This document shows, one piece after another, positions 1-63,295 of a DNA stretch of 64,000 nucleotides. The notes under the pieces are model-generated. The model was not told where the DNA came from, searched no databases, and saw only the letters and a program-made list of their open reading frames with translations. The position numbers and the translations under genes are program-made. This stretch comes from Antedon mediterranea (lineage: Eukaryota; Animalia; Echinodermata). The DNA lies in contig NC_092672.1 in the NCBI RefSeq assembly GCF_964355755.1, forward strand, positions 25,240,437-25,304,436, given 5' to 3'. Numbering within the stretch: the stretch's first letter is position 1; each line of letters opens with the position of its first letter.

Positions 1-813
1 TAAAACGACGCATGCGACTAGAGTTGACTAGAGTTGACTCTGGATAACGAATTGGACAACGGTAAACTGGAAGAGTTGCAAATTACGGTGACCAACAACA
101 ACCGTATATTGTTATTGCATAAACAAGAAAAAAGAACCTATCACTGCGGTGCGGACATGAAGTATCCCATAACTTTGCACGGTGCCTTTTCCACACCGTG
201 CGCATCGGAGAAAAAGAATGGTGTTGCCACCGCCATTGCGAATATTGCCAAAACCAATTCAATCAACAAAACACTATTTGCTAGATTTGTTGGACGAGCG
301 ATGGAATCACATGCAAGCAGTGATTGGACTGCCATAATAAACATTCTTCAGATATCAGATCAAATGACGGTATTAAAAGAAAAATGTGAGTACAAACGAA
401 AACGAATCTTAAAAGATTCTCTAATGGACAAGTATCCATCAACGAGAAGTTTTATTAGTGATGTAAATAATCTACCCTCATCTAACATTGGCATTCAACA
501 ACTCGTAAGCCTATTGGAGCAGGCACGCCAAGATTTACGTGAAACAGAAACCAAATTGAGTACTTTACAAACACAATTCAATACCATGTTGATAGAATTC
601 CAAAATCACATCACCAAATCGGAAGAAAGAGAAATCAAATATCAACAAGTAATAGAAAATATGCAAAAACGAGAAACCGATATGGTTTCTACGTTTCAAG
701 ACAGTTTGCTTTCGATGGCCGATACTTTGCGTGATGAGATGCGCCAACAACTGACAAAACGAAAGCGTCTTCCTCAATGCGGCAATATTAAGAAAAAACA
801 ACGAATCCATTGA
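1..813 (+). pseudogene. Duplicate of the 3' half of the 6531-8105 gene, frameshifted by a 10-bp duplication
   Basis: Near-identical to 7303-8105, but ACTAGAGTTG is doubled at 17-36 and breaks the frame relative to the intact copy. Confidence 0.8.
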
Positions 814-1281
814 CTTTAAAAAAAAACAAAACATTGTTGTTGTTTTTGTAGTTTATTTTGTATTAGTAATTTTTTATTGTACAAATCAATGCCGTAATTG
901 TAGTAGTAGTAATAGTAGTAGTGATAATAATAATAATTAAACGTTTCATTATTTCTATTTATAATTTATTGTACAAATCAATGCAATTTTAACGTTGCGT
1001 CTACCTCAATATAATAGTAACAACGAATTCATTAAGAAAACTAAAAATTGTAGTGTAGTAATAATCAATTCAATGCCGCAACAAACATTGTAGTAATAGT
1101 AGTGATAATACAATTAAACGTTTGAAAGAAAAAAAAAATATTGTGTTTTTTCTCTCTTCCAACGCGATGACGACGACGACAGCATTTTATGTGATTGTGA
1201 GAATGTTGATGAAGAAATAAAGAGAGAGAGAGAGAGACATGGATACGGTTTGCTTAGACACCCATGGATATTGACACCGTC

Positions 1282-2071
1282 AGTCCAGTCAAAAAATCAC
1301 CCTCACCATGGTATAAGAACGTACCCTAATTAAATTTCATCCGTAGGTTCTATGTATATAGGTAATAACATTTCTTGATGGTTGCGTCTTGCAAAACTTG
1401 GGATTTTACGAGAAAATTAGACTTTTTATACCCAATTTATAACCGCCTCATGTCGTATTATTGTGTACAGCGAATGCGACGAAGCGTGACTGAAATTACG
1501 AGACGCCGTTAGCGCCCGTTGAAAAATGCATTAACAAAGCTAAAAACCTACAAAATTAATAGTTTATACAAAAATTTAAATATAGTTTACAATAAATTGT
1601 ATAATAAAATACATAAAATTATAAAGAAAACCCAATTATAAACTAAAATATTTACAGATATGTGTTTAAAAATGTACAAATCAAAATGGCCTTTCATAGA
1701 ATAAAGTGCGCCCTCACGCGTCATACTTTTATCGGACTTGTATGAATGATTATAATATACGAAACCCGATGCGGTTTGTTAGTTATTGCCTCTGCAAGAG
1801 GCAGAATATTATTATTATATTTTCACAAATATATTTCTAGTTTTTATTATGGAAAAAAAAAAGGATTGTATATATTTAAACACATTAAAACCTCCAGTCT
1901 ACCATCATGATGGATTAAGTGAAGCGCCGTATTGTATCTGCTAAACGGTAATGATCTCCTAGTTATCTGGTTAGCCTATATTCTGGACATTCTTTTTTTA
2001 ACAGCATTACTTGCGCGGATATCACAATGCATTGTTTATTCGCGATTATAGTCAATGTTAAGTTGAGTAAG
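1282..2071 (+). mobile_element. Truncated copy (left TIR plus internal part) of the 8574-9993 TIR element; another copy at ~3408-4218
   Basis: Starts AGTCCAGTCAAAAAATCACC and matches 8574-9389. Confidence 0.7.
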
Positions 2072-2599
2072 CCGCGCAATCAGTAACATGCATAACATGC
2101 CGTGCATTCATCGCGCGTTGTATAATTATTATACATGGTTTCTTAAATCCAAACACACTCTTATTCTAGAATGTTCATGTAGATACATACACCGTCTCTT
2201 TACCGATCGAGTTGATACGGTCGTGCAATCAATAAGAGGCATAACATGCCGTGCATTCATCGCGTGTTGTATACCGAGAGAACCAATTTAAAATATTGTT
2301 TACTTCGAGAAGAAGCAATACACCGTCTCTTTTTACCGATCGAGTTGATACGGTCGCGCAATCAGTAACAGGCATAACATGCCGTGCATGCATCGCGTGT
2401 TGTATATATACAATAATGTTTATAACTTTCCAGATCATACTTCTTATTCTATTCGATTACAGTTTCTAATGATAGCATCCTTCAGGAAACAGCGCGAGTC
2501 AATGTTTTCAAGCATTCAGTTCACCCAAACGGAGAGAGAACACTACCCGTTCTCTCTTCTTGTATACGATATGTTCGTAACCTTCTAGATGATACTTCT

Positions 2600-3180
2600 T
2601 ACTCTATTGGTATTACATTTTCTAATCATACTTTTGGAATGTTTCTGATTGTTCTTATAATAATTATTATACACGGTTTCTTAAAATCTAAACACATTCT
2701 AGAATGTCCATGTACATGTTACTGTATAATGTTGGAAAATTTTATGATGACGGTTAAACATATTCAATACCGAGTGGCAGAGGCACGCATTATAGGCGAG
2801 ATATATTATCTAACTTGCCGTTTAAGACAATTGCATTGGTTCGATGTATGAAATGACCCTTTAACAGTTGTATGACAAAACCATTCTTCAATACTCCCGC
2901 ACCAATGGACAATGCATGTCTCTTATTGTAAACGCTTTCAACTTGGTCATCTGTCATCATTGTTTAGAACAAAAAAGAGACAGAAAACTGGTACCCGTTT
3001 GCATTCATTGGATGTATGAAATGACCCTTTTAACAGTTTTATGAGAAAATTATTCTTCAATACACGCGCACCAAAGAGGACAGTGCGTGTCTGTTATTGT
3101 AAACGCATTCGACTTGGTCATCTGTCATCGATAATTCTTTAGAACAAAAAAGAGACAGAAAACTGGTACCCGTTTGCATT
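2600..3180 (-). pseudogene. Decayed leucine-rich-repeat-like coding sequence, locally amplified as ~180-bp repeats (also 4620-5780)
   Basis: Minus-strand reading MTKLKAFTIR..RMVLSYNC*RVISYIEPMQLS*TAS*IIYLAYN..MFN resembles LxxLxLxxNxIxxIxxxxF, with stops. Confidence 0.4.
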
Positions 3181-5901: not shown

Positions 5902-6305
5902 TCACATGATGTCTTGTAACGAAGGAGGGTGAGTGGAATGATTAGGTAGACTTGAGTTCAAGGTCCATATGATGCAAACGACGACGATGATGATGATTCC
6001 AAACAGCAATCCTGCAATAGACCATCTCTTTGCCGATCGTGCTGATCTGGCTGCACCCTCACCGTCACCGTAGTCGAACTTTCTCGAACTCTGTAAAAGT
6101 AAAAGAATAGAAACTAAAATAGATTAAAAAAAATTTAAAAAAAAGTGGTGATGGGATGAGGTTGTAGAGGAAATAGATTACTTACATCTACGCTGTACAC
6201 GATTCCTATAATACCGAATGGAATACAGCATAATAAAGTCACGAGTATAGCTGAAATCAGGTAATTGTTAGGTCTTCTCGCCACTATACGGGAAACAGAT
6301 TGCAT
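5902..6305 (-). CDS. CD225/dispanin (IFITM/PRRT-like) membrane protein, two exons (6305-6186, 6090-5902), 102 aa
   Basis: Exon 1 RRPNNYLISAILVTLLCCIPFGIIGIVYSVD; GTAAG...TTTTACAG phase-0 intron 6185-6091; exon 2 SSRKFDYGDGEGAARSARSAKRWSIAGLLFGIIII completes the CD225 domain. Confidence 0.88.
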
Positions 6306-6530: not shown

Positions 6531-8105
6531 ATGGATCATTGCGATATGGACATGTTTTTAGAAAACCTATTAGCGTTCGATTCAACAGACGACGACATAT
6601 TAAAGACGGCAATGTTGGAATTGCAAGACCCGGTCGAACCAGTTTTCATGGAGTACCAACAAGAAGATGATATAGCATCAGAACAACAACCACACCCATC
6701 ACCACCACCACCGACGCCGCAAGAATCAACAAAGGCAAACACGATGATAAATGTTCGAGGCAGTCTCGGTAAACTAATTGCTTTCTGCGATGGATCTGAA
6801 CATACACTAACGCAATCATACGGTCGAATGATCGGATCTTTGCAAAAGGCAAAAGGACGCATGCACGAGATGCCAATGTTATTGATGTGTACGGACGGTG
6901 AAGAAGAGTACGCGGTTGTTGCAAGTGTTCTGGAATCATCGCGACTTGTCGAATCTACAATTGAAAATCAAGTCATGAGTGTACTTGGAGAAGACAATAG
7001 GAAAACAATAATGCAGCAATACGGTAGGGACAACGTGTTTATGAACGTTTCTTCACGAAATAAAAACTGTGTTGCTGACTTTGTCGGCGCCGATGTATCG
7101 ACGATGCCCGTGCCGATTTTTGACATAATAAATGGCGACGTGAAACGTATTTGTTTCTATATGGCACTCGGCTGTCTCTACAGTCCACAATGCGATGATG
7201 ATGTTGCGTCGTCGTCGTCGTCGTCGTCGCCGCCGATGAATGGCGTTCGACTTAGAACTCCAAATGGAGTTGTCTATACGGCCGCCATCATGCCGATAAC
7301 TGTAAAACGACGCATGCGACTAGAGTTGACTCTGGATAACGAATTGGACAACGGTAAACTGGAAGAGTTGCAAATTACGGTGACCAACAACAACCGTATA
7401 TTGTTATTGCATAAACAAGAAAAAAGAACCTATCACTGCGGTGCGGACATGAAGTATCCCATAACTTTGCACGGTGCCTTTTCCACACCGTGCGCATCGG
7501 AGAAAAAGAATGGTGTTGCCACCGCCATTGCGAATATTGCCAAAACCAATTCAATCAACAAAACACTATTTGCTAGATTTGTTGGACGAGCGATGGAATC
7601 ACATGCAAGCAGTGATTGGACTGCCATAATAAACATTCTTCAGATATCAGATCAAATGACGAAATTAAAAGAAAAATGTGAGTACAAACGAAAACGAATC
7701 TTAAAAGATTCTCTAATAGACAAGTATCCTTCAACAAGAGGTTTTGTTAGTGATGTAAATAATTTACCCTCATCTAACATTGGCATTCAACAACTGATAA
7801 GCCAATTGGAGCAGGCACGCCAAGATTTACGCGAAACAGAGACCAAATTGAGTACTTTACAAACACAATTCAATAACATGTTGATAGAATTCCAAAATCA
7901 CATCACCAAATCGGAAGAAAGAGAAATCAAATATCAACAAGTAATAGAAAATATGCAAAAACGAGAAACCGATATGGTTTCTACGTTTCAAGACAGTTTG
8001 CTTTCGATGGCCGATACTTTGCGTGATGAGATGCGCCAACAACTGACAAAACGAAAGCGTCTTCCTCAATGCGGCAATATTAAGAAAAAACAACGAATCC
8101 ATTGA
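6531..8105 (+). CDS. Hypothetical 524-aa nuclear protein (acidic N-terminus, C-terminal coiled coil, KRKR/KKKQR NLS)
   Basis: Long ORF; ATG directly after the TATA-Inr; heptads in LEQARQDLRETETKLSTLQTQF. Confidence 0.8.
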   Translation: MDHCDMDMFLENLLAFDSTDDDILKTAMLELQDPVEPVFMEYQQEDDIASEQQPHPSPPPPTPQESTKANTMINVRGSLGKLIAFCDGSEHTLTQSYGRMIGSLQKAKGRMHEMPMLLMCTDGEEEYAVVASVLESSRLVESTIENQVMSVLGEDNRKTIMQQYGRDNVFMNVSSRNKNCVADFVGADVSTMPVPIFDIINGDVKRICFYMALGCLYSPQCDDDVASSSSSSSPPMNGVRLRTPNGVVYTAAIMPITVKRRMRLELTLDNELDNGKLEELQITVTNNNRILLLHKQEKRTYHCGADMKYPITLHGAFSTPCASEKKNGVATAIANIAKTNSINKTLFARFVGRAMESHASSDWTAIINILQISDQMTKLKEKCEYKRKRILKDSLIDKYPSTRGFVSDVNNLPSSNIGIQQLISQLEQARQDLRETETKLSTLQTQFNNMLIEFQNHITKSEEREIKYQQVIENMQKRETDMVSTFQDSLLSMADTLRDEMRQQLTKRKRLPQCGNIKKKQRIH

Positions 8106-11081: not shown

Positions 11082-11468
11082 ATGATTCTAGAAGTCAAAA
11101 CTATCACTATCACTTTGTTGACAATCGTATGCATAACGTTGCTACTTGTCTACGTGTCCTGTGGAAGAAATAGCGCATGCAACGAACGGTTGTGTGGCAT
11201 CAGTGGACGAATGGAGTACGATGGTGTATCGAAATATTGCGTGTGTGTAGGCGATGGCGTCTCCGGAGCCGTGTGCAAACAATCGATTCCTAAAACAACA
11301 GTAAACTGCACGACGTGTACAGCGCATAATGGCCGATGTGTATACTCTGACGCCGCAGACGGTAACTATTGCGTGTGTCCCAACGATCGTTTCGGATTCT
11401 CGTGTGAGTATCGGTACGTCGGTGGTGTATCGGCAGCGATGTTAGCGTACGTTCAGGCTTGTCTCTAA
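11082..11468 (+). CDS. Secreted or membrane-anchored protein with two EGF-like modules
   Basis: Hydrophobic N-terminus; YCVCVGDGVSGAVC and HNGRC...YCVCPNDRFGFSCE follow EGF cysteine spacing. Confidence 0.75.
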   Translation: MILEVKTITITLLTIVCITLLLVYVSCGRNSACNERLCGISGRMEYDGVSKYCVCVGDGVSGAVCKQSIPKTTVNCTTCTAHNGRCVYSDAADGNYCVCPNDRFGFSCEYRYVGGVSAAMLAYVQACL

Positions 11469-11509
11469 AAAAACAAAACAAAAAAACCACCGCACACACG
11501 CACTACACT

Positions 11510-12205
11510 ATGGGCATTAAACTGGCCTTGTTCGAATGCGCTTATCGATGGTTGCCCATTCAACCGTATTTCTACATATCTATCATACTTTTCATAACGT
11601 TCAGTCTCATCAGTTATGTCATCGTAGCGTCCAGAGCCATCGTCGGCAACGTATGTAAAGTATTGTCCGCTGTAACGAAACAAGTGGAGCGAATCATCAT
11701 CAGTCAAGCCAAGAAGAAAAGTTTACGCGTGTACATGCATCAATTCCAGGCTCTGTGGCACACCATCGACGGATGCGAAGCTTTTCAAACTTGGTATCAA
11801 GTCGTACGTTACGGATTTCACAGAACGATGGGATACGTTTTCTGTGACAAAATGCGATGGTTTTACTCGATAACGTTCACTCGTTATCTTGTCTATTATC
11901 CAATGAATCTACTCGTATGGCAACCGACGCACGGTGACTGCTCCGTCAGTTATCAGGACGATATCTGCTTTGCCTTTCATCTAAATCTAATCTTGGACGT
12001 GATTCGGCGATATCTTATCATATCCGTCGTGGTTTTGTACAATACTTGGCCTCTCGTCTCTCATTATATGGCCACATTAAAACGCATCTTTAGAACTTTG
12101 CATCGAGAAATGTGCTATCAGTTGCACAGACTTGATCCCGGCGGTCATTCTTTGACGCGCGGACGCTTTGCAAAACGAATCAAACATTTTTTTCACTTTG
12201 ATTGA
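11510..12205 (+). CDS. Hypothetical membrane protein
   Basis: ORF with hydrophobic segments (YFYISIILFITFSLISYVIV); first ATG at 11510. Confidence 0.7.
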   Translation: MGIKLALFECAYRWLPIQPYFYISIILFITFSLISYVIVASRAIVGNVCKVLSAVTKQVERIIISQAKKKSLRVYMHQFQALWHTIDGCEAFQTWYQVVRYGFHRTMGYVFCDKMRWFYSITFTRYLVYYPMNLLVWQPTHGDCSVSYQDDICFAFHLNLILDVIRRYLIISVVVLYNTWPLVSHYMATLKRIFRTLHREMCYQLHRLDPGGHSLTRGRFAKRIKHFFHFD

Positions 12206-13068
12206 TGAAATGAATGATCTTCGGCCAGAGCACTTTCAGCCACTTTGCGGTTATGCACGTGCATTCTGGCTCCAGCGCATATTGCGTAGACAGACACGAT
12301 CGCTACTAAAAACGCTGTACAACAGGTAATCAATTCTAGTGTACAATCACAGTCGTCTTCGTGTACAGTACTGGAGCAGCCTAACGACATCCATCGGTCC
12401 CAGTCCAATAGTTTGGTGGCGTTTCTGATGAGTTCCAGTCGAACACACTCTACACGCTCGACGAGCGTAGATCTAGACACTGTCATCGAGCCATACAGTC
12501 GATTCAACACAACAGAGCCACCGACGATCGAGTTTAAACTCACGTTGTGTACCCGCAACGTTTCTTCAGACAACAGCGGTGATACGTGAACGAGTATGGG
12601 CGGTGGCGCTGAATCGATATTCATTACATCATCATCATCACCACCACCACCACCACCACCGTGTACACCGAGACGCTCCAATGTAACGTTGTACACGCGT
12701 CCGACTCCTGTGAGACGCAGCGCAGACGACGAACGCGACCAGTTGTTGCATTTAAACGAAAAGTCTTGTACGTGAACGTGATCACCGATCAAAAACGACG
12801 TGCAATCATTCGCTGTCACTATGATGCCTTTACCGCACAACGGTCGCACAGTCACGTTCGATACAAACACTTCATCATAACTAATACTCTCGAGACTAGA
12901 GGAAATGCACGAGGAAACGTTTAACGCGTCGTCTGGAATAACAACGTACGTATCGTGTGCATCGTTTCTATAATTTATGTCTTTCAGGTAACCAACCTGC
13001 GACGACGTACATAATGACTTGTTTGCAATAAACAGAAATAGAATCAGAATTATTTGTTTTTTATTCAT
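12193..13068 (-). CDS. Type I membrane glycoprotein (candidate envelope protein)
   Basis: Signal peptide MNKKQIILILFLFIA, several NxS/T sequons, C-terminal TM segment LITCCTAFLVAIVSVYAICAG. Confidence 0.75.
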   Translation of the reverse strand: MNKKQIILILFLFIANKSLCTSSQVGYLKDINYRNDAHDTYVVIPDDALNVSSCISSSLESISYDEVFVSNVTVRPLCGKGIIVTANDCTSFLIGDHVHVQDFSFKCNNWSRSSSALRLTGVGRVYNVTLERLGVHGGGGGGGDDDDVMNIDSAPPPILVHVSPLLSEETLRVHNVSLNSIVGGSVVLNRLYGSMTVSRSTLVERVECVRLELIRNATKLLDWDRWMSLGCSSTVHEDDCDCTLELITCCTAFLVAIVSVYAICAGARMHVHNRKVAESALAEDHSFHQSK

Positions 13069-13916
13069 TTCGTTTCTATAACAAATTTAAAGTCGTCGAC
13101 TGCAGCCAGTTCGTCTTCGCTAAAATTACAATTTCTCAACACTAACGTCACATGCTCCTTGTCAAACACACTTGACAATTGTATCGGAGATACGTCCATA
13201 CATTCGATACACACCGTCATCGGATAAGCGCTCGGCCGCATATCATTACCAAACGTCAGCCTGTTGCACCTTACAAGTCGAACGTCTTTCAAACCTCCTC
13301 CTCCTCCTCCTCCTCCTGCACCTCCTACATTTGTCATCAACGTAGATAAAAAACTGTCGACGATCGGCACATCTATCAAAGTTAAACGTTGCAGAGATTG
13401 TATGCAGAGTACACTTTCAGCAAACGTTCTTCCCATCGTGGCACGTTGTCGTTCGCGTATTGCCGCGATCAAAATCTCGTCTGGATCGTGCTCGACTGCT
13501 TCACTCACAAAACGTACAATAGACCGCAAATCCATTTTCTGATCCTCTACGTTGTTGTGCATACGTTGCAAAATCTGAGCAATACACTTGCGTCTTCGAC
13601 TCGCGCAAGTGCATTCGTTACAATATTTCCTGTCAATACGTACTACAGTCACGACGCATTTCTGACACGAAGACACCTTGCAATTTGCGCATCTATACAT
13701 CATTTTACATGTATCGCATGCTTTTGCGCCGCAGTGTATACAATTCTGTAGCAAGAATCGAGTGCACTTTCGACAACGATCCGTTTTCTCATCACCGTAT
13801 ATCAAGTCGTTCCAAACTTTTGAAATATTCGACGTACACAGTCGGCGTGTCGGATCATCTTTTAGACAATCGCGTATACTCAGGCATACCTCTAACGGTA
13901 CCTTGATCATTGTCAT
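13065..13916 (-). CDS. F-box-like plus Cys-rich zinc-binding region plus LRR-like C-terminus
   Basis: KVPLEVCLSIRDCL...NISKVWNDLI fits an F-box; multiple CxxC; LQRLTLIDV, LKDVRLVRCNRL and LVLRNCNF are LRR-like. Confidence 0.6.
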   Translation of the reverse strand: MTMIKVPLEVCLSIRDCLKDDPTRRLCTSNISKVWNDLIYGDEKTDRCRKCTRFLLQNCIHCGAKACDTCKMMYRCANCKVSSCQKCVVTVVRIDRKYCNECTCASRRRKCIAQILQRMHNNVEDQKMDLRSIVRFVSEAVEHDPDEILIAAIRERQRATMGRTFAESVLCIQSLQRLTLIDVPIVDSFLSTLMTNVGGAGGGGGGGGLKDVRLVRCNRLTFGNDMRPSAYPMTVCIECMDVSPIQLSSVFDKEHVTLVLRNCNFSEDELAAVDDFKFVIETK

Positions 13917-14122
13917 GTCGCGTGGACGCGTTGAAAACACGTTTATAACATCAACACAACGATATCATCACTTTTACGCACACATTAAAAAAACAAACAA
14001 CAAATTAACGTTTCGATTCTTTATTATCATCATCTCAGAAACAAAAATTTAATGCTAGTACGTACTGCGCATATATAAACGAAATAAATTCATAACATTT
14101 TTTTATTTATTTATTTTTTTTT

Positions 14123-15049: not shown

Positions 15050-15152
15050 CGTGAATGAAAATGAAAATATGGAATCGTAATCAGTTCCTTTTAACCATTA
15101 ACAAGACACATACAGAGAGAGAGAGAGAGAGAGAGAGACGCACAGCGCGACG

Positions 15153-16190: not shown

Positions 16191-16244
16191 TGATGAGCAC
16201 ATGAACGTATTTCGCGCACGAAACGACACAGCAGCACAGAGACG

Positions 16245-31929: not shown

Positions 31930-31976
<47 letters not shown>

Positions 31977-34934: not shown

Positions 34935-34969
<35 letters not shown>

Positions 34970-45305: not shown

Positions 45306-45437
45306 TCTGCACCTACACTCGTGTTTGACTTGCTTATGAATGAAGGAGAATACATTCAGTTGTTTCTATATTACAAGTTGTATGTCGAGTAAAAATTCAT
45401 ATCAAATCTACCGAAGAAAATACCGGCGCAAGAGAAA

Positions 45438-51184: not shown

Positions 51185-53428
51185 TCAAGCGCAGAAAGCA
51201 TGTGCCCGTTTACAAAGGGCATCGTGACAGCGTACAATAAACAGTATTCTTTTATCTTCTTCTTGCACGCTGCTAAAAACGTGCTCGTTCTTTCTAACCT
51301 GACGTTCTTCTTGGCTCGTTGTGCATACAACTTTAGCGCAACAGTCCACATTTGTTGTCTGCTGCTGCTGCTCATATGTTTTCGCGCGAGAGAGATGCAA
51401 TGGAACGTTTGCAATCATAGCGTACATCTTATCCATTCGTTCTTGTATACTTATGATATTGTTGTTGTAAGAAGAAGAAACGAGAACGCCCAGCACGGAA
51501 TCTGTATCAATGCGACAACGTTTTCTTAGACCTCTTAGTAGATCGGTTGCGCCCACTGTCGAATTGCAACAGGCAGCAGCCAACGGATGATACGCCACTC
51601 CGTTATGTCGGATGTAGTAGGGCACTTGTCGATACAGTCCAAAGGCGATGCACATTTGCTTGTACGCGGCAGAGCTAGTCTCTTTCTTGGACACTCTACG
51701 CATCATTAGCTCGTCTACTTGCTGCGAGTCTTTCAGTTTACAGACAAGTGTTTGCATGATGTCGATGCACGTATCTATGGCCGCGTTGCAATCGCGTTCC
51801 TTCAGAGCAGTTTCAACAAAGTTTTTATCCAGTTCTGTAAGTAATGGTTCAACGTCACATTTTAAGGTGAACATGCCAGTGGTGCTGATGTTCCCGTCGG
51901 CGTGCAAACACGCGTACCTTTTCTTCTTGTTGGTCAATAACAATCGACAGAGTGTCTCTCTGTGTACAAATTTCTGCCAGCTATCACCGCCGCCGCCGCC
52001 GCCGCCGCCTATAACCTGCGCAAATCTTTCTTCCAAACGTTTTCTGCTGCTGCCACAATCATCAGCTAGTTTCACAAACAATGAATCCGTGTCTCCGTAC
52101 AGAACGTGAGCTCCGTTATCTTCGGCGCATTTCTTTAGACGACAAAGTTGCTGTCTGCATTTCGAGGTCACGTAGTTGTACAGTTGAACACTGCCGGTAA
52201 TTACTAGACACCCTATGCATTCGTTGGCGGCTCGTTTGTAGGCAGTCGCGTGCTGCGGATGAGCATCTCGCCCCAACACCAGTCTCTTCATGATAGACGG
52301 CAAAAGACCTTCGCGTACGTTCCGATCGACAAAAGAACCGTCCTCACACATTGTTGAATAGTCTACATTCTTGTCTACTATAAAGCGTGGATAGTAGGAT
52401 TTGAAATCGTACACTTCTACGTGTTCGTGAATATCGGGTACAGTTTCCAGTACAAGACCACCTTTAACGTCTCGCGTCGATTTTCTACGACGAGTGTTTG
52501 GGAAAACAGTTTGTCGACGTATAGCCTCGCGGCAAAGCAGGGATGAGAGCACCTGCGTTCTCGATGCGTTCGGGAACACTCCGACGAGTCTAGACACGTT
52601 CATCAGTGTATCAATCAATTTTTTCGATTCTACCTGTTTGCAATATTCTGGCAAAAGAGACGCGTCGTCTTGCATGGCCCCGTCCGATACGCTGGCCATC
52701 AACTCGAAACAGGATCGTCTACCAACGTACTCGTACAGGGAGTTTGGATCACAACATAACGTGCGCGCATCGTTCGTGGTGTCTAGACAAATGGGCATGC
52801 TATCGATCGGCACGTTCAATGTCTTACATCGTGCTCGTATGCTCGCTCTCACCCATTCTCCGTGATAGACGAGCACGTCAACTGAATCGAAAGATTTTAT
52901 GATTCCAAGCAGTATGCTTCGTTCATTGTCGTCTGTTGTTGCTGCTTGTACAACACTCGTACCGTCGTAAGACAGTGCCGCAATGATTCGTCCGTATACG
53001 TTCAATCTAATGATCAAGTAGAGAACGGACAGTTTTACAGGATGTATTTTTTCGCATTCAAAGTGCACTTGCTCATCATAGTGTACGTTCGAAACGAATC
53101 CATGCTCATTCAACGAGTATCGATGCCATGCACATCCGTGTACACCGACTGCACACTGAGCGTCCAGATCGTCGTCGACAGATGGAAGATTGCCGAAAGC
53201 GTTTATCATTCTCTTTCTGTTGTTTGATACAACTTTTCTGTATTTTCGATTCGATGCTACGTATTTGTCACCTCTGCTCATTACACAGTCACCGCACACG
53301 TCATCTTCAACGTATTCGACGAATTCAACATTGCTTGTCTGCAGCGACAAACGTCGTCCGATCGGGTCTGTACAACGAATTGTCAGTTTTTTCTGGCAGT
53401 ATTTCACTCGTGTAAAGTAGGCATGCAT
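51185..53428 (-). CDS. polB: Family B DNA polymerase, delta-like, compact (747 aa), exonuclease degenerate
   Basis: KGGLVLE...YDFKSYYP, REGLLPSIM, YKRAANECIG, VLYGDTDSLFV, LLLTNKKKRYA. Confidence 0.93.
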   Translation of the reverse strand: MHAYFTRVKYCQKKLTIRCTDPIGRRLSLQTSNVEFVEYVEDDVCGDCVMSRGDKYVASNRKYRKVVSNNRKRMINAFGNLPSVDDDLDAQCAVGVHGCAWHRYSLNEHGFVSNVHYDEQVHFECEKIHPVKLSVLYLIIRLNVYGRIIAALSYDGTSVVQAATTDDNERSILLGIIKSFDSVDVLVYHGEWVRASIRARCKTLNVPIDSMPICLDTTNDARTLCCDPNSLYEYVGRRSCFELMASVSDGAMQDDASLLPEYCKQVESKKLIDTLMNVSRLVGVFPNASRTQVLSSLLCREAIRRQTVFPNTRRRKSTRDVKGGLVLETVPDIHEHVEVYDFKSYYPRFIVDKNVDYSTMCEDGSFVDRNVREGLLPSIMKRLVLGRDAHPQHATAYKRAANECIGCLVITGSVQLYNYVTSKCRQQLCRLKKCAEDNGAHVLYGDTDSLFVKLADDCGSSRKRLEERFAQVIGGGGGGGGDSWQKFVHRETLCRLLLTNKKKRYACLHADGNISTTGMFTLKCDVEPLLTELDKNFVETALKERDCNAAIDTCIDIMQTLVCKLKDSQQVDELMMRRVSKKETSSAAYKQMCIAFGLYRQVPYYIRHNGVAYHPLAAACCNSTVGATDLLRGLRKRCRIDTDSVLGVLVSSSYNNNIISIQERMDKMYAMIANVPLHLSRAKTYEQQQQTTNVDCCAKVVCTTSQEERQVRKNEHVFSSVQEEDKRILFIVRCHDALCKRAHAFCA

Positions 53429-53431: not shown

Positions 53432-54241
53432 TTAGTGCACGGGACGTAGAAAGAGTTTCTTACAAAGACCGTGCTGGGTTGCGGCCACCTGATTGCTTTT
53501 AATTGTTCCGTTGGCAAGAGTCAACATGGACATTAAATCGTGTTTTGTTGAATACGAATGAAACACTTTACAGAGTGACTGAATAAACTTATACTGACGG
53601 TCCAGGGTCGAATACGTAATGGATACGTCACAGCCTCTCGGCAACGATTGAGGCTGCACGACAATTGTTTCGTCTACTTGACAAGCTTGTATGAAAAAGA
53701 GTTTAGGTTTTCCGTTCAACGTTTCACATTTTTCGAAACAGTCGACGATTTCAGTGACATTGACAGTACCGTGAGTGAGAATGCACACGGCAATGCAATC
53801 TAGTCTAGAGTGATCGTATTCACTTAGACGTGTGAGCAACGTCTTCGTTTCTATGGACGTCAGATTGTGATTAACAGACAGTTGGAAGCCGAGATAATTG
53901 AAGACATTTTCAAGCGCTGCACAATCATCATCATCATCATCATCATCATCATAATTGTTGATGATTACTGTGAAACCGCGCGGATTTGAAGTCATCTTGT
54001 ACTCGTTCAATCCGCCATCATGGATAGAATCGATAAATGCATTGTACGCAAAACTACCTCGTGTTTCGATGTCGATCAACAATCGTTCACGAGCGTTCGT
54101 GTTAGATAAAATTGCATCCATCTTCTTGGTCGAATACACGCCTTTCTGTACCAATTTCTCCATTACTTCTCTAATGCTGTTTATGTTACGAATAAAATAG
54201 AGACGATTTTGACGCAATTTTTTCTTGTCTGATCTGTTCAT
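53432..54241 (-). CDS. CARD-containing caspase homolog with deleted substrate-binding loops
   Basis: CARD-like LRQNR...LLIDIETRGSFAYNAFIDS; YKMTSNPRG..IINN, CILTHG, GKPKLFFIQACQ, FIQSLC, LCKKLFL. Confidence 0.9.
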   Translation of the reverse strand: MNRSDKKKLRQNRLYFIRNINSIREVMEKLVQKGVYSTKKMDAILSNTNARERLLIDIETRGSFAYNAFIDSIHDGGLNEYKMTSNPRGFTVIINNYDDDDDDDDDCAALENVFNYLGFQLSVNHNLTSIETKTLLTRLSEYDHSRLDCIAVCILTHGTVNVTEIVDCFEKCETLNGKPKLFFIQACQVDETIVVQPQSLPRGCDVSITYSTLDRQYKFIQSLCKVFHSYSTKHDLMSMLTLANGTIKSNQVAATQHGLCKKLFLRPVH

Positions 54242-56018: not shown

Positions 56019-56369
56019 ATGAATCGATGTACGCAAATGGATGTTTGCAGATTCTTTTCGGAAAAGTACAGAGTAGATGACTTTGTAGAGAACGATGTGA
56101 ACGGAGTCGTGTCTATGGCCACCGATCGATACGTTAAGAGTGTTGACAGTCTATGCGCTTCTTTGAAGAACTTGAAATGTCAGCGAAATGCAACAGTTAA
56201 AGTTACATCACCAGCACCACCATCATCATCATCATCATCGTTGAATGTTGATCATCTTGCATCACCACCGCCACTGGCTGAGATGCAGATACCGTATTGG
56301 TTCGATGAACTGGAGCGTTCGATGAAAGGAAAACGAACGTGGTTCAGTGTCAACTATCGCATTATGTAA
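56019..56369 (+). CDS. Small hypothetical protein
   Basis: ATG at 56019, divergent from 55984, filling the gap to the protease 3' end. Confidence 0.5.
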   Translation: MNRCTQMDVCRFFSEKYRVDDFVENDVNGVVSMATDRYVKSVDSLCASLKNLKCQRNATVKVTSPAPPSSSSSSLNVDHLASPPPLAEMQIPYWFDELERSMKGKRTWFSVNYRIM

Positions 56370-57202
56370 TTCTGATGAGTAGCTTGCCAATAATTGAATC
56401 CGTCGTCTTTGAACGCAAACGATGCATCCACTGTCTGTGATGGTGGTGGTGGTGGTGGTGGAGGTGGGGCTAGCAGTTGTTTGCCCAACATTTCTGTAAG
56501 TTTCTCGAGACTGTTTATACGTTTTTCAAATTCATCGTCTGTGGTGGTGGCTGCTGCTGCTGCGGCGGCGGCGGCGGTGGGTTTAAGTTTTTTCTCTGGC
56601 GGTTCATTCGTTTCGTGTTTACGTTTTCTATTACCATGATCGTTCATTGTATTATTTTTGATTCGTTGTTCGACTGTTTTGAAGTAATCGTTGCAGACGT
56701 TAATCGTATTCTCGTTGTTTTTTGTCAACAATCGCTTGTGAATGTCTAGTATTTCGCTCAATGATGTAGCGTTTGTAACGTTCACTTGATCTTCCATTTT
56801 TGGAAAACGGCGCTTGAGCAAATCACCCAATTCGGTCTTGTTTGCCATGTTCAAGGTGGCATCATCGATGAGATCATTGGCGGCCTTAAACGAGGCGGCA
56901 ACGTCAATACCAGGATCCGTGTCCCATCGATCCGTCACCGCTTTAAAGTCTTTCATTTGCTTATTGTATTCAGGTCCGAGTCTTCCCTCCATCGTTTCTC
57001 TCAAACGGAGTATAAAGTCACCGAATTGTTCACGCAAGAGATCCACCTCTTCCTTGATTTCTTGTTTGTCTTTTACGCTGCTCTCTTCCTTGTCTTTCAA
57101 CAGCGAGAGTAGAGCATCGAGTTTTTCCGGTGGTAACGTGTTCGCCATATCTTTCACTACTTCCAATTCCGCCAGCAAATTTTCTTCCTTCTTCACAGAC
57201 AT
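56354..57202 (-). CDS. Predicted nested, in-frame scaffold gene (UL26.5-like), 282 aa
   Basis: In-frame ATG at 57202 just after the protease domain; TATAAA on the minus strand at 57244-57239. Confidence 0.55.
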   Translation of the reverse strand: MSVKKEENLLAELEVVKDMANTLPPEKLDALLSLLKDKEESSVKDKQEIKEEVDLLREQFGDFILRLRETMEGRLGPEYNKQMKDFKAVTDRWDTDPGIDVAASFKAANDLIDDATLNMANKTELGDLLKRRFPKMEDQVNVTNATSLSEILDIHKRLLTKNNENTINVCNDYFKTVEQRIKNNTMNDHGNRKRKHETNEPPEKKLKPTAAAAAAAAATTTDDEFEKRINSLEKLTEMLGKQLLAPPPPPPPPPSQTVDASFAFKDDGFNYWQATHQNYIMR

Positions 57203-57697
57203 TGCACCTTCTTTTTCCTCTTTTACTTTGCGACGACGTTTATATCCGAATCTTTTTTCTGCTGTACGTCTGGCGCTGCGCTCGTCACTACAGAACACGG
57301 CCACTGTACCTTTTCGTTGACCAGTCTCCACGAGAGAAACTTCAACGCATTTAGTGTGATCGGCGCGTCTGTAGCTGAGTGACAGACAGTTTAGATGCTG
57401 TGAGAATGGACTGCGTAAAAACGGTTTATTCGTGATCTCTATAAGAACGGCCACTGCACCTGTTCCTTCTTCGTGTGCGTCTGGATGTGTATTGTCTCGC
57501 CACCAATCTAGAACCGTACCGATGCCTCCCGATGAATGTATTCCAACACCGTTCTTACGTGCTTTCACGTGTTTCCATCGAACCGGCAATCCGATGAGTT
57601 TCCATCGATCTATCACGTCAGGCGTTACATCATATTCTTTGTCAACGACCACCGCTGTCACTTCTGTCACCACGTATCCGACAACGAAACGTTTCAT
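56354..57697 (-). CDS. Capsid maturation protease (assemblin/HK97 prohead protease fold) fused to scaffold
   Basis: GLPVRWKH (His), IGTVLDWW, LNCLSLSY (Ser), VEVSLVETGQRKGT (oxyanion G-x-R-x-G-T); helical C-terminal half ends TVDA|SFAF. Confidence 0.88.
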   Translation of the reverse strand: MKRFVVGYVVTEVTAVVVDKEYDVTPDVIDRWKLIGLPVRWKHVKARKNGVGIHSSGGIGTVLDWWRDNTHPDAHEEGTGAVAVLIEITNKPFLRSPFSQHLNCLSLSYRRADHTKCVEVSLVETGQRKGTVAVFCSDERSARRTAEKRFGYKRRRKVKEEKEGAMSVKKEENLLAELEVVKDMANTLPPEKLDALLSLLKDKEESSVKDKQEIKEEVDLLREQFGDFILRLRETMEGRLGPEYNKQMKDFKAVTDRWDTDPGIDVAASFKAANDLIDDATLNMANKTELGDLLKRRFPKMEDQVNVTNATSLSEILDIHKRLLTKNNENTINVCNDYFKTVEQRIKNNTMNDHGNRKRKHETNEPPEKKLKPTAAAAAAAAATTTDDEFEKRINSLEKLTEMLGKQLLAPPPPPPPPPSQTVDASFAFKDDGFNYWQATHQNYIMR

Positions 57698-58232
57698 ACC
57701 ACAATCGGTTCTTCTTTTTAGTATTTCTCTTCTTCTTATTCTTCTTCTTCTTCTTCTCCTTGCTCTTAATGTAGCGCATCGCTAAGGTGTATCTTTCTGT
57801 TTTCAAATGTGCCAAATCTGTTTTATCATCTTCCTCTATTATAACGTTTTGAACGGTTAACGTTTTCTCTTTCAGATCGACGACAGCTTCCATGTCGAAA
57901 GACATGCACAACAGTTGAACGGTGAACCAGTCTATGTGTTTGACGTCCATAAACACCGCCACGTCATCATCGATCACGACCGATGAACAAAACGGAGCTG
58001 TGCGTTTTGCCACCAATGCTATGCTCGGATGTGTTTTGTTACCAAACGATTGATGATCGTAGGGTATACCCAGCTTTGCTATTGCACAGTCGCATTGACT
58101 TTCACAAGAGAATCGTACCACACCTACAAGACGAGAACAGTCGATGCAACAATGCGTGCCATCTGGACACGATGCAAGTAGAATTCTCAAATCAAGACTC
58201 GATATATTACTTTGCATAACGTTCACTCTCAT
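57642..58232 (-). CDS. Hypothetical protein with a basic C-terminus
   Basis: ATG at 58232, Cys cluster, Lys-rich tail; overlaps the protease start. Confidence 0.6.
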   Translation of the reverse strand: MRVNVMQSNISSLDLRILLASCPDGTHCCIDCSRLVGVVRFSCESQCDCAIAKLGIPYDHQSFGNKTHPSIALVAKRTAPFCSSVVIDDDVAVFMDVKHIDWFTVQLLCMSFDMEAVVDLKEKTLTVQNVIIEEDDKTDLAHLKTERYTLAMRYIKSKEKKKKKNKKKRNTKKKNRLWYETFRCRIRGDRSDSGGR

Positions 58233-58921: not shown

Positions 58922-61900
58922 TTAAGATATGATTTTTGGAGTAAACGACGACGGTAGTTGAGCTTCATGATTATCCGATATCTTATTCTCTGTGGCGAGT
59001 TTAGCAATAAACAAATCAACATCTTCGGTGACATCTTCAGACGTGTCCGAGTACCAGTTTACTAGACCGAGCTCGTACGGTTTGTTGTTGGCGTTAGTTC
59101 TCGAGCAATTTATACTCATATCCTTTTGTTTGTACAATTTCTTCACAGAGTCCTTTAATCGATCTAAATCCTGTTGGCACGTTACGGCAACATGATGTCC
59201 AGTTTTTGCATTGAACACGTCGTCATCATAATCGTCAACGTCTCCCTCGAAATTTGCTTGAACAAGTTTCATTCTAATCACGTTCAACGCGTCCGCATTG
59301 TGAATGGTGACACGACACGTGGGACATTCAACTCGGTTGGCTCTCGTGTCTTTGGCACGATTTCGTATCATCTCTCGAATGCAGGACATGTGAAATATGT
59401 GCGCACCGTTCCAATCGACTGTGCTGCATGCTGTAAAGTCTCCTCCGCTTGCAATTGTAGCACAAGGCAAAGCTTCGAGAGAACGACATCCAAATTCGTA
59501 CATGCATATGGCACAGGTTTCACGCTGTAATTCCACAACTTCTTTCGCGTACGACGAGGAGTTATCGTCAGATTCGTTGTATTCCATGGTAATTGATAGC
59601 CGACCGGACGGTGGTATATCTACAATTGCTTGTCTGTCGGATGGTGTTTCGTAGGCATCCGACTCGTTCACCTCGACAACTCTTCGGAAAGGATCGAAAC
59701 GAGAGTACTTTCGTTTCGCATACAGTCTGTTGAGTTGACCGGATTGATTAGAGTTGAAGAATTTGAAGACATCGGCAAATATGGCCACAACAGCTTTTCG
59801 ACGTTCATCTTCTTTGTCGAGTCGTGCAACGTTTTGCAATTGACCAAAGCAGTATTTGAAGGTGGCTCGTTGACCGGCGTCACTGAGTCGAAACTTTGTT
59901 CTTGTAAAATTCACTATATTGTTCATGGCGATGGCGGCGGTGGCTTGATCAAATTGTGAGTGTTTGTCCATGACACCGTCAACGATGTTTTTAATCTCTT
60001 TGAACGCGTCCAGTCTATGCACACGGATTTCGGTCGGTTTCAGGAGCACTAAACTATGAGACTCGTTATCGTCATCATCGTCGTCGTCGTTGCCACGACC
60101 TCTACGCAATTCGCAATAACGATGGTCTTCTTTTTCATCATCATCCTTGTCTTCTTCTTCTTCTTCTTCATCGCTGTTGTTGTGAACGGCATCGGTGGTG
60201 GCTTTCAGTCGTTCTGTAACGTTTCGAATTGCAATCTCACCTTCGGGGTCCAATTGACGACTTGATAATCTAACTGCGTTCAGCATTTGACGTCTGGCGC
60301 TGCTCTGTAATGCCTCGCCGTCGTATGCCAACGTTTTGTTGGTTAAGCTGCTCATGTCCACTCCGTCGTTATTCTCAACCGTATGATTGAAATCGGTCTC
60401 GTTCATTCGCATTAGTTTCACCATCGGATTCTCGTCCACTGTTTTGTTCATGTTCAATATAAAGTTTGTGTCCGTTCTGTTCTCGTCGATTCTTCTTCGA
60501 CTGATGGTTGTAGACGTGGCCATGATTGAGTTGTACCGATCTTCATCAACGATAAATTGTTTGGCCTCTTGCATCGTTTCTAAACGCCATTGTTTCTGAG
60601 CACGGCACGCCTCGTCCAATACTTTCATTTTATTCCACATTTTCAATTCGTTTTCGATGATGTTCAATCGAAACAGATTTTCAATGTGTATCTCACAGAA
60701 TTCTTTTGATCGTTTCACGAAATCCGGATGAATTTCACCGGCTGATAAATCTTCCAGAAAGGGATACTGTGCAAGTACTGCATGTTCGTTCACCAGCTCG
60801 TACCGTCTACTCGTGTCGGACGTGTCAATGTCGGTGGCTAATTTGATGTCGGCCGTCGTGTAAAGGTGTTCACGTTCCATGTGCTTGGTACGATTGTAGT
60901 CGTTTTTGAATCTATGATTGCACTTTCTGAGCCGACAACGCAGACGTAACATGACGAGCAGTTGTGAATCTTCGTCTACGCCGGCTGCAATCACCGTTCG
61001 ACGCTCGGGCGGTTGATCTTCTGCGCAAATTTCTTTCTCGAAAATTTCGGCACCGATTCTTACCAGCCGTGCTGATCTCTGATACCAGTCGTATTCTCTC
61101 AGATATCTCATGATACCACCACCACCACCACCACCACCACCACCGATTCCTAAACGTTTTAGCACCGTTCGAGTCAATGTACTGAATTTCATGTTACCGT
61201 GCCCTTGATCTTCGAGCACCGAGTCTATTGTGGACATGAGGTTGTCGGAAATGAGAACAATGGCCTTTGGTTCGCTCTTGAAAATATGACATTTCATTGT
61301 GCAGCACAACCGCGCCAACATCAACACCGTCATCTGATTCATTCGAGCACTGGCCAGAGGAAACGCTTTGCCGTTCTTGACCATGTACTCGTTGAGCATA
61401 CGCCAGTATTGTTTGGCCATTCGAGTGGACGCGATGGCCACCGATTCAACACGGCCGAAAGCGGCTGCTGAACTGAATTTGTCTAAAGAACTTGGATCGT
61501 GTCCGACGTCCGATAGTTTTCCTCTCAGATTGGCCGCTTTCATCTTTGCTGTCGATCGTAGCGTGTACACGGTGTATCGCTGCTGATGTTCAGATACCAG
61601 TTTGAATAACGTGTCTGCGATTCCAGCACCAATTGGGCGATTTTTCGCCACACTCACCATTTGACTAATTGTGATACAGTCTTTTTCCAGCACGTGATCG
61701 AGTGAACGTATAAATTCGCGCATCGGCATCATTGTCTCCTCTTTAACTTTATCTTCTAGAATTGGCAATTCGGCTCTCTGATCGTTGCCAACTCGGTACA
61801 CTTTCAAATGTTTGTCGCTGATGGATGGATAACACGGTCCGTATCCACCGATAGACGGTCGCGCGACATCACCGTATCGTAATCGTGACGATTTCACGGC

Positions 61901-61951
61901 CAACGGATAGCCCGTCGCCTGTGTGAGATATCTTTTGTGTCCACCTGACAT
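58922..61951 (-). CDS. Large C2H2 zinc finger plus RING-H2 protein (putative E3 ligase), ~1009 aa
   Basis: CRLRKCNHRFKNDYNRTKHMEREH; CAICMYEF...LPC...HIFHMSCIREM...CPTCR; acidic central tract. Confidence 0.85.
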   Translation of the reverse strand: MSGGHKRYLTQATGYPLAVKSSRLRYGDVARPSIGGYGPCYPSISDKHLKVYRVGNDQRAELPILEDKVKEETMMPMREFIRSLDHVLEKDCITISQMVSVAKNRPIGAGIADTLFKLVSEHQQRYTVYTLRSTAKMKAANLRGKLSDVGHDPSSLDKFSSAAAFGRVESVAIASTRMAKQYWRMLNEYMVKNGKAFPLASARMNQMTVLMLARLCCTMKCHIFKSEPKAIVLISDNLMSTIDSVLEDQGHGNMKFSTLTRTVLKRLGIGGGGGGGGGGIMRYLREYDWYQRSARLVRIGAEIFEKEICAEDQPPERRTVIAAGVDEDSQLLVMLRLRCRLRKCNHRFKNDYNRTKHMEREHLYTTADIKLATDIDTSDTSRRYELVNEHAVLAQYPFLEDLSAGEIHPDFVKRSKEFCEIHIENLFRLNIIENELKMWNKMKVLDEACRAQKQWRLETMQEAKQFIVDEDRYNSIMATSTTISRRRIDENRTDTNFILNMNKTVDENPMVKLMRMNETDFNHTVENNDGVDMSSLTNKTLAYDGEALQSSARRQMLNAVRLSSRQLDPEGEIAIRNVTERLKATTDAVHNNSDEEEEEEDKDDDEKEDHRYCELRRGRGNDDDDDDDNESHSLVLLKPTEIRVHRLDAFKEIKNIVDGVMDKHSQFDQATAAIAMNNIVNFTRTKFRLSDAGQRATFKYCFGQLQNVARLDKEDERRKAVVAIFADVFKFFNSNQSGQLNRLYAKRKYSRFDPFRRVVEVNESDAYETPSDRQAIVDIPPSGRLSITMEYNESDDNSSSYAKEVVELQRETCAICMYEFGCRSLEALPCATIASGGDFTACSTVDWNGAHIFHMSCIREMIRNRAKDTRANRVECPTCRVTIHNADALNVIRMKLVQANFEGDVDDYDDDVFNAKTGHHVAVTCQQDLDRLKDSVKKLYKQKDMSINCSRTNANNKPYELGLVNWYSDTSEDVTEDVDLFIAKLATENKISDNHEAQLPSSFTPKIIS

Positions 61952-62009
61952 TTTTTTTTTGTAATGTTTTTGTTTGTTTTTTTTTTTAAAAGACAAATAC
62001 ACTTAAATA

Positions 62010-62756
62010 CTATCGTCGAGTCATGTTTCTGTGCGTTCTTCCTCCTCCTCCTCCTCCTCCTCCTCCTCTTCCGGTAGAACGTCTCTCGTCCGACACGTTA
62101 AGAAGACTCGAGTATTCGTAATCGTTTTCATCATCCATCGCTGTAGAATTTTTTGAATGCACGGTACTGGTGGAGCGCCAATGATGATAAACGCCGTATA
62201 TCATATGGCATACAGACGCTACGACGGTGAGTATGAGTAGAACGCGGTCGGTGGTTGGCGTGAATGAAGAGCTGCAGAAAGGTTCGTTCATGTATTGCGT
62301 TGTCAAGTAACAGTACGGTATACTGTACGCCAAAAGGCCAAGCAATACGGCAGCGATAACTGGTACGGTGTGCAGCACCATGCGTTCCCATACGGCCGGT
62401 TGTTTGTATCTGATCAAATGTTTCTCCAACGTGAAACGAGTCATGAGATAAAGAAAGTTTACGATGATCGTAAACACATCTGCTCCAACGGCGTACAAAA
62501 GTGGACGACTGACAAACACAAAATCAATCTGACCTGGATGTCGTTCAACTCGTTCACTTTCGTTCACAAGAAATATGGCAGAAATCAACACGCCCAACAT
62601 GTAAAACAGTTTCTGAAGATGCAACACAAAATGATCGTGCCATGCTCGTATACCTTTCAGAGAGTATACCTCATGCATGGCATCGGTCAAAACGCTTGGA
62701 ATCTCGGCCAATGTATTTCCAAACGAACGAAGGCTAATTTCGTCTCCGTACCCCAT
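62010..62756 (-). CDS. Four-pass membrane protein
   Basis: Four hydrophobic segments; acidic tail with a YSSL (YxxL) motif. Confidence 0.75.
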   Translation of the reverse strand: MGYGDEISLRSFGNTLAEIPSVLTDAMHEVYSLKGIRAWHDHFVLHLQKLFYMLGVLISAIFLVNESERVERHPGQIDFVFVSRPLLYAVGADVFTIIVNFLYLMTRFTLEKHLIRYKQPAVWERMVLHTVPVIAAVLLGLLAYSIPYCYLTTQYMNEPFCSSSFTPTTDRVLLILTVVASVCHMIYGVYHHWRSTSTVHSKNSTAMDDENDYEYSSLLNVSDERRSTGRGGGGGGGGGRTHRNMTRR

Positions 62757-62919
62757 CGTTTGATCTATTTCTTCTCTATAATTAACATGGAATAAAAAAA
62801 CAAAAACAAAACACTAATGGTTTCCAACAAACGCACGCACGCACACACAAATTCTATTTATTTTTTTTTATTTTTTTTTATTATAAATGTACAACGCATG
62901 AAAAATAAAAGCATAAAGC

Positions 62920-63295
62920 ATGTTAAGTAATCGGCGTGTAAGGATAAGCAGAGGCGCTGGTCGCTCGTATACTGTTGACGGTAAGAAACTGATTTCGGTA
63001 ACAAAACAGATTTGCAACAGACTGTACGTTGACAAACGATGGAAAATAAAGCGAGCGCGTCACATTGGGTCAGCTTCGCTTTCCAGTGAGAATGCCATGG
63101 AAGTCGGTCGTCAGATGGACGCTCAAGTTTGTTGCATGGCCAACGAGGAAGTGAATAAAGAGTTGCAAAAGTTAGACTTGGAGTTTATGAAGGCGCAGTG
63201 TGCTGTCACCAACGCCACCGTAGATAACGATGGTGATGCGTCTGTGGCAATCATAGATCTTGTGATGCAGAATCGTACGAGTGGAGATGCGGTGG
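62920..63295 (+). pseudogene. PD-(D/E)xK-type nuclease N-terminal part, apparently cut at the element boundary
   Basis: RSYTVDGKKLISVTKQI, EVGRQMD, AIIDLVM; composition switches to AT-rich where the (D/E)xK motif is expected. Confidence 0.5.

Follow-up and report, generated by a model that had tools for sequence, protein, structure and literature searches.

What is the virus-like element that abuts a host gene in a 64-kb stretch of the genome of the echinoderm Antedon mediterranea (contig NC_092672.1, positions 25,240,437 to 25,304,436; the whole of this stretch is hereafter the window), and where does it belong among the large DNA viruses of eukaryotes? The answer that emerges is that the window probably contains the right-hand portion of a large virus of herpes type, a deep branch of the realm Duplodnaviria, inserted into an intron of an animal gene. 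The preliminary description of this DNA had envisaged a lineage that mixes the traits of herpesviruses and mirusviruses. The observations reported here support a large DNA virus of the HK97 realm, probably replicating in the nucleus, integrated in an animal genome and lacking close described relatives; the trait mixture is unproven, the supposed TATA-binding protein (TBP) having failed its test. Accordingly worded, the element is likely a deep-branching herpes-type duplodnavirus for which no specific mirusvirus trait is shown.

The placement in Duplodnaviria comes from the gene at 56354..57697 (minus strand), which encodes a maturation protease of the assemblin type joined to a helical scaffold region, as indicated by Pfam, alignment and fold searches. 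The product matches the alloherpesvirus ORF28 domain (Herpes_ORF28; E 6e-07, 31/40 bits) under the curated cut-off, and sequence searches of PDB with the protease recovered nothing. The protease domain (57218-57697) yields a predicted fold with pLDDT 75.9 and pTM 0.77, as against pLDDT 39.7 for the single-sequence model of the whole protease-scaffold. All 30 of the matches listed for this domain in the PDB fold search are herpesvirus proteases; in BFVD, the proteases of frog, otter, eel, bat, elephant, abalone and sturgeon herpesviruses, which span the allo-, ortho- and malacoherpesviruses, come on top, with phage prohead proteases next. In a wide fold search, three herpesvirus proteases score Z 10.9, 9.9 and 8.3 (root-mean-square deviation 3.0-3.6 over 105-130 aligned residues; the best, Z 10.9, with 3.0 over 125 residues), compared to Z 6.0 for T4 gp21 and 5.3 or less for unrelated folds. 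Because identity to the herpesvirus proteases of every one of the three families is only 14-27% (14% for the abalone protein), the protease favors no family.

The homologs of the protease comprise one at 70% and six others at 38-68% kept from eight further matches, seven in total; P0036 and P0038, fungal and mycoplasmal repeat proteins, were dropped as spurious. In the eight-row alignment, His43 is found in 8/8 rows, the His and Ser positions are conserved along with an S-L-S stretch and a V-S-x-x-x-x-G-x-R motif, and five of the eight rows match Herpes_ORF28; in the full-length rows, the protease motifs are followed by a helical region with a conserved A-S/N-Y-W tail at its end. These motifs and the tail resemble the assemblin catalytic, oxyanion and maturation-site motifs. 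Judging from the modeled fold, the protease-scaffold named in the preliminary description appears to be a genuine capsid maturation protease with the assemblin fold, a trait of Duplodnaviria.

A 19-kb relative, L001 (gene block at about 57% GC), is partly syntenic with the window. The two have four genes in common, two in the same order, and in both, a Cys-bearing gene lies directly upstream of the protease (57642..58232 in the window, minus strand; BLAST E 9e-15, and alignment). This gene shows a conserved Cys-Cys-Cys-His pattern reminiscent of the herpesvirus nuclear-egress protein UL31, a likeness for which no PDB match was obtained. Two genes after the protease, L001 carries an open reading frame (ORF) of 1123 amino acids (10976-14344, plus strand), with no counterpart in the window, whose size and place suggest a candidate major capsid protein; it has no library match, and its HK97 score, 22.9 over 18 columns, is marginal against a shuffle maximum of 20.5. 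Also shared are the gene at 16245-17270 (BLAST E 6e-17; several membrane spans predicted by eye; the membrane-protein pair has no PDB match) and, weakly, an 826-residue gene with no function assigned (38030..40510, minus strand; BLAST E 2e-05 and 3e-06). The ESM Atlas gave no usable match for the latter or for the 1123-residue ORF of L001, which indicates neither novelty nor absence. L001 additionally contains a BTB-BACK-Kelch gene inside its block (2629-4413, minus strand), and its first 2.5 kb are lower in GC, perhaps, a further host junction.

The family B DNA polymerase (PolB; 51185..53428, minus strand; 747 residues; Pfam E 1.7e-19) presents another facet of the element. Compared to 23 other family B polymerases, the window PolB and its one close relative have no acidic residues in any of the three exonuclease motifs and retain the two polymerase aspartate motifs, so that the enzyme, itself short, is predicted to be proofreading-dead. 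Among its 24 homologs, the close one aligns over the full length at 47% and the others are partial, at 24-32%; no named herpesvirus PolB is among the 24, nor is there a herpesvirus polymerase among the best 60 of 95 PDB matches. The best of 75 PolB loci in IMG/VR reaches 27% over 250 residues. In phylogenetic trees (FastTree on 88 rows, LG+G4 on 32 of them, with allo-, malaco- and mirusvirus sequences outside the set), the two PolBs sit together on a long branch that falls outside both the group of herpesvirus, delta and giant-virus polymerases and the baculoviruses. Grouping with the orthoherpesvirus polymerases is rejected in the AU test (p 0.022), a result of moderate weight given the long branch, obtained under LG+G4 with three herpes-clade PolBs, two of which adjoin glycoprotein B. 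As a side observation, single-residue runs of at least six (poly-G, -D, -A, -P, -S and -E; triplet repeats) number 18 in 14 of 25 ORFs of the window, between 12193 and 62756; there are none in the PolB relative or in three AAA+ homologs, and three in five protease homologs. They could stem from slippage, whether on the part of the host or of a proofreading-dead polymerase.

The second replication gene (24280..28637, plus strand; 1409 codons in two exons) encodes an AAA+ ATPase, likely a helicase. Its homologs form three clusters of 1375-1479 residues, and because these intron-less proteins align to both 24280-25485 and 25635-28631, the two exons constitute a single gene, split by a 128-nucleotide GT-AG intron (25503-25630) that preserves the reading frame. 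The protein has a Walker A motif; profile comparison gives a probability of 89 for MCM over 53 columns versus 81 for SF3 over 28, leaning slightly to MCM without deciding. Of the AAA+ helicase proposed earlier, the AAA+ gene stands, as that of an MCM/SF3-like ATPase. IMG/VR scans with PolB, the AAA+ protein, the protease and the capsid candidate of L001 found no relative, and neither did a metagenome scan with the AAA+ alignment. Judged by sequence, the real oddity of the element is this replication module, a short, apparently proofreading-dead PolB combined with an MCM/SF3-like ATPase; we found no published description of a lineage with such a polymerase and helicase, within an incomplete coverage of the literature. 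A more far-reaching interpretation, which we advance tentatively and consider possible rather than probable, is that the element represents a third eukaryotic branch of Duplodnaviria, outside both Herpesvirales and Mirusviricota, that infects animals and combines a herpes-type kit for capsid maturation and nuclear egress with a replication module of its own, comprising a polymerase of 750 residues that does not proofread and an MCM-like helicase of 1,400 residues. Such a lineage would be so young, or so active, that several related hosts carry it almost unaltered.

The window further encodes a set of proteins that connect it to animal viruses and animal cells. PolB, CLCC1, IAP and the kinases, all named in the preliminary description, are confirmed by Pfam. 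The CLCC1 homolog is short (18607..19179, plus strand; 190 residues; Pfam MCLC E 4.7e-16); viral CLCC1 is reported only from allo- and malacoherpesviruses (PMC12639132). Protein kinase 1 (40523..42163, plus strand; Pfam E 8.6e-08) and protein kinase 2 (47159..48823, plus strand; Pfam and BLAST) are paralogs, 34% alike. The IAP (45900..47132, plus strand) combines three BIR domains, a UBA-like domain and a RING (Pfam BIR E 4.5e-48, RING 3.9e-12); genes with BIR domains are a trait of Malacoherpesviridae that is not exclusive to this family among viruses. Of the RING genes reported earlier, the one in the IAP holds, and the C-terminal RING of a 1009-residue gene (58922..61951, minus strand; Pfam E 9e-4) is weak and under the cut-off. 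A CARD-caspase (53432..54241, minus strand; Pfam E 9e-21 and 1e-09; PDB caspases) had been overlooked. It retains His-Gly and Gln-Ala-Cys motifs but seems to be without the substrate-binding arginines, so it may be a decoy. The two-exon CD225 gene (IFITM/dispanin-like; 5902..6305, minus strand, intron 6185-6091 with in-frame GT-AG; Pfam E 6e-11 and 3e-07), with its short intron and CpG observed/expected ratio of 0.98, lies within a duplicated 7.3-kb unit and is either a viral capture or a host gene.

At 43893..45365 (minus strand; Pfam, with an EABR-like motif under the cut-off; intron 44945-44846 with in-frame GT-AG) lie one or more low-GC coiled-coil genes. In copies of the element from samples labelled organisms B and C, 982 nucleotides of the gene are missing (joint 44167-45150). 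The same sequencing runs contain a homolog that is about 90% alike and whose match ends at the splice donor; in one exon, 12 of the 18 listed differences between the two fall at third codon positions. This looks like a recent capture at the DNA level, with part of the gene deleted later in organisms B and C. Of the spliceosomal introns mentioned in the preliminary description, one is borne out by homology (25503-25630), and the two at 44945-44846 and 6185-6091 are inferred from their in-frame GT-AG boundaries.

Could the element be an animal-infecting mirusvirus, or at least lie nearer to mirusviruses than to herpesviruses? Mirusviricota are eukaryotic duplodnaviruses that share with the window a maturation protease, spliceosomal introns and, possibly, an MCM-like gene (PMC10132985, PMC12768974 and PMC10827195): they are reported to carry the protease, a TBP and a "DNA replication licensing factor" (PMC10132985), and their genes contain spliceosomal introns (PMC12768974). 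Moreover, the AAA+ gene of the window leans slightly to MCM, as noted above, and fold libraries may hold few mirusvirus proteases. However, the ORF previously read as TBP-like (48766..49545, plus strand) has no match in Pfam, NCBIfam or PDB sequences, its only PDB rows being at chance level (E 0.5); against a profile of 33 archaeal TBPs it scores 14.4, where shuffles have a mean of 13.7 and a maximum of 20.2, a test of low power with a single divergent query; and a test for an internal repeat gives p 0.87-0.92, though all these tests have little power with so divergent a query. Nor did Pfam detect an RNA polymerase, histone or heliorhodopsin among the 39 long ORFs. The mirusvirus PolB is reported to be sister to that of herpesviruses, near Pol delta (PMC10132985), whereas the window PolB falls outside that group in the trees; the reported mirusvirus hosts are mainly unicellular, although the host survey excluded Metazoa, and CLCC1, IAP and caspase are traits of animal viruses. 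Hence, we consider a mirusvirus identity unlikely.

It seems similarly doubtful that the element belongs to an already reported group, be it as a divergent allo- or malacoherpesvirus or as a member of the endogenous herpes lineages of starfish and ribbon worms. Endogenous herpes-like elements have been described in fish (PMC5601938, PMC10175614) and in amphioxus and Capitella (PMC5552708), and herpes-like regions are embedded in starfish and ribbon-worm chromosomes (10.1101/2025.04.19.649669). With Alloherpesviridae and the Teratorn-like elements (PMC5601938, PMC10175614), the window shares an integrated large virus with open frames, an ORF28-type protease and, in some members, CLCC1; unlike Teratorn-like elements, it displays neither a piggyBac transposase nor a clean terminus, its PolB is short, apparently proofreading-dead and not recognisably herpes-like, and the protease is the sole one of the 13 core genes to be recognised, weakly. 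With Malacoherpesviridae and the amphioxus and Capitella elements (PMC5552708), it shares a likely invertebrate host, BIR, RING and CLCC1 genes and the assemblin fold, with its match to abalone herpesvirus; it differs in the lack of close PolB similarity and in the 14% identity of the protease to the abalone protein. The starfish and ribbon-worm regions, compared to the window by description only, are likewise deep-branching herpes-like DNA in invertebrate chromosomes, but they were placed between Ortho- and Malacoherpesviridae by a herpes-like PolB (10.1101/2025.04.19.649669). The elements reported in PMC5552708 were found by clear herpesvirus PolB similarity, with E values of 1e-98 to 1e-172, in contrast to the absence of named herpesvirus polymerases among the 24 homologs and 60 best PDB rows of the window PolB; and the protease stands at the same distance from each of the three herpesvirus families. 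The PolBs of allo- and malacoherpesviruses were outside the tree set. PolB and the protease nest in no sampled family, and the genes of the window are not single-copy host genes.

Integration is probable from the right end of the window. The last viral-type ORF (62920..63295, plus strand; CpG observed/expected 1.27; nuclease-like by eye only, with no family match, and not significantly similar, at E 0.04, to a nuclease-like ORF of L001) is cut at a change of composition. It is followed by a segment that we interpret as the probable virus-host junction and the remainder of a host intron (63296..63374, plus strand), with a drop in CpG and GC at 63,300, and then by two exons internal to an OGFOD2-like host gene (63375-63499 and 63816-end, within 63375..64000, plus strand; Pfam E 4e-16 and 4e-08; in-frame splice sites). 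These exons begin mid-domain, preceded by the intron remnant with a normal acceptor. The CpG ratio falls from 1.27-1.49 in the viral genes (about 1.3-1.5, tandem arrays included) to 0.24 from 63,296 onward. The end of the element given previously, 63295, fits this compositional break; the probable junction at about 63,296, seen in the assembly, is newly recognised. Because the junction cuts a viral ORF, entry likely occurred through imprecise repair, or else a later deletion trimmed the end; it does not look like a clean transposase reaction here. The earlier characterization as largely intact is apt for PolB, the AAA+ protein and the protease, which are full length relative to their homologs; for the virus as a whole it lacks support, the right end being cut and no capsid, terminase or portal gene recognised in the window. 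The gene blocks are broken up by CpG-poor scraps (0.37 and 0.50) and by a repeat whose inverted ends are imperfect, and the open frames, together with the undecayed CpG, point to a young insertion or continued selection.

Near-identical DNA in other samples bears on the same question. The segment 46001-55900 is matched in nine runs from four studies under three organism labels; the top four runs may stem from the source of the window itself, and no RNA run is among those listed. Contigs of organism B on 44101-59300 differ by about 1.4-2.8% on long pieces, and organisms B and C share the 982-nucleotide gap (12/72 indel rows and 32/169 pieces being those listed for this comparison); the five coding indel events among the rows listed, plus one joint, are net multiples of three. 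In organism B, the blocks of the element have depths of 50 and 33 in run X5 and of about 240 and 130 in X6, of the same order as those of the coiled-coil gene homolog that is about 90% alike (45-55 and 167-233, respectively); depth is a weak measure that gives no copy number, and both runs come from one study. In the organism B runs, depth over a repeat within the window is about tenfold greater. The low or missing cover of PolB in X5 and X6 was set aside, since a record filter was in use. In a separate observation, contigs of X5, X6 and X9 match both ends of 47608-48889 and of 51930-53124, with unlike sequence or unknown letters in between, which suggests that organism B and X9 may carry another element, more diverged but with the gene order preserved.

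A virus genome in free or episomal form, with host repeats picked up along the way and joined to a host gene by assembly error, would account for part of this picture: the junction is known from the assembly, near-identical DNA under three labels could reflect a circulating virus, the viral genes are free of CpG decay, and X8 and X9 contain shallow pieces. The normal acceptor and in-frame exons at the junction, the several CpG-poor insertions within the gene blocks, and depths that scale with the probable host homolog in two samples argue the other way and render this scenario quite improbable. That the window merely contains host genes and repeats resembling a virus is barely credible: IAP, caspase, CLCC1, CD225 and the kinases have cellular homologs, but the near intron-less coding density of 87-97%, the assemblin fold, the non-cellular homologs and the sharp break to a true host gene contradict this.

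Several points weigh against an integrated herpes-type virus as the preferred reading. The hallmark genes of Duplodnaviria are outlined in PMC4405056; in the window, no gene for an HK97 major capsid protein, terminase, portal, triplex or integrase was recognised. The realm membership of the element, which works like an endogenous herpesvirus, therefore rests on one protein, the protease, and assemblin-type folds occur also in tailed phages and mirusviruses. PolB is no more like herpesvirus polymerases than like others; the homologs of PolB and of the protease sit on different contigs, with the linkage of the two seen in the window only. The window lacks the 5' exons of OGFOD2, and the junction is known from the assembly, not from reads. 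Finally, X9, a second sample labelled organism A and possibly of RNA, contains only shallow, scattered near-identical pieces, as could result from a polymorphic insertion or an infection. As for the individual virion genes, 0/11 window ORFs scored above shuffles against 26 HK97 capsids; a terminase-type Walker A is absent from the six frames, the sole Walker A being that of the AAA+ gene; Pfam and PHROG gave no portal match in the window; and no transposase or integrase was matched in 39 long and 69 short ORFs, with the left end outside the window.

If the element is indeed an integrated herpes-type virus, its DNA would be copied in the nucleus by the proofreading-dead PolB and the MCM/SF3-like helicase, and the host spliceosome and Pol II would serve the expression of its genes; nuclear replication and host transcription are suggested by the presence of introns and the lack of an RNA polymerase in the window. 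An HK97-type capsid would be matured by the protease-scaffold, and the viral CLCC1 would aid nuclear egress, by analogy with the viruses described in PMC12639132. The captured IAP, CARD-caspase, CD225 and coiled-coil genes could dampen cell death and signalling, and host repeats and tandem duplications would have accumulated after entry, with the frames still open.

Few invertebrate herpesviruses are known, and no intermediate between the mirusviruses of protists and the herpesviruses of animals has been described. A lineage with an equidistant protease, a polymerase and a helicase that seem to be independently acquired, and at least eight relatives in public data would widen the sample that could fill this gap. 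The viral CLCC1 would be a further capture of a nuclear-egress factor, and it would be unusual for a large DNA virus to have a polymerase incapable of proofreading. An insertion in a conserved host gene that is common to several organism labels can be dated and genotyped.

With regard to the layout of the window, 85 stop-to-stop frames of at least 100 amino acids reduce to about 30 plausible genes, arranged in GC-richer blocks (GC 0.41-0.48) separated by AT-rich repeats. The compactness of the blocks, remarked upon earlier, is evident from coding fractions of 0.97 (11079-17270) and 0.87 (38001-63400); the former block consists of seven genes (11082..17270), the last being the membrane protein shared with L001. 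Pfam was run on the 39 long ORFs and on 69 short frames in the gaps, the latter yielding the two-exon CD225 gene and the two OGFOD2-like exons. A 524-residue gene (6531..8105, plus strand) has no family in Pfam, PHROG or the other libraries; a tandem copy of 7303-9348, found by self-BLAST at 1..2040 (plus strand; 97%), carries its 3' half, and the copies differ by six synonymous and seven non-synonymous codons. A putative AlkB-like oxygenase (36003..36677, plus strand) is weak (Pfam E 1e-3, under the cut-off; PHROG E 0.008). Of the expression signals claimed in the preliminary description, TATA boxes are mildly enriched, at 8/30 gene starts versus 4.2 expected (p 0.039, in a search window picked after the data were seen), and AATAAA signals, at 10/29 gene ends versus 9.2 expected (p 0.45), are at the chance level. 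Telomeric repeat arrays were not detected in the window.

The host transposable elements of the preliminary description are upheld as CpG-poor scraps and repeats bounded by terminal inverted repeats, their names being without a Pfam match. An insertion at 17340..18486 has imperfect inverted repeats at its ends and a CpG-poor LINE-like scrap (CpG ratio 0.37), and self-comparison places pieces of it also at 9994-10323, 43060-43205 and 58493-58862; a decayed LINE-like fragment occupies 22700..23670 (plus strand; CpG ratio 0.50, GC 0.26; no Pfam match). The designations LINE-like and MITE-like for the repeats of the window are tentative. An AT-rich unit of about 1 kb is present in about seven copies at 28950..35900 (CpG ratio 1.41); this array and the one at 830-5800 are as CpG-rich as the viral genes and may thus derive from the virus instead of host satellite DNA.

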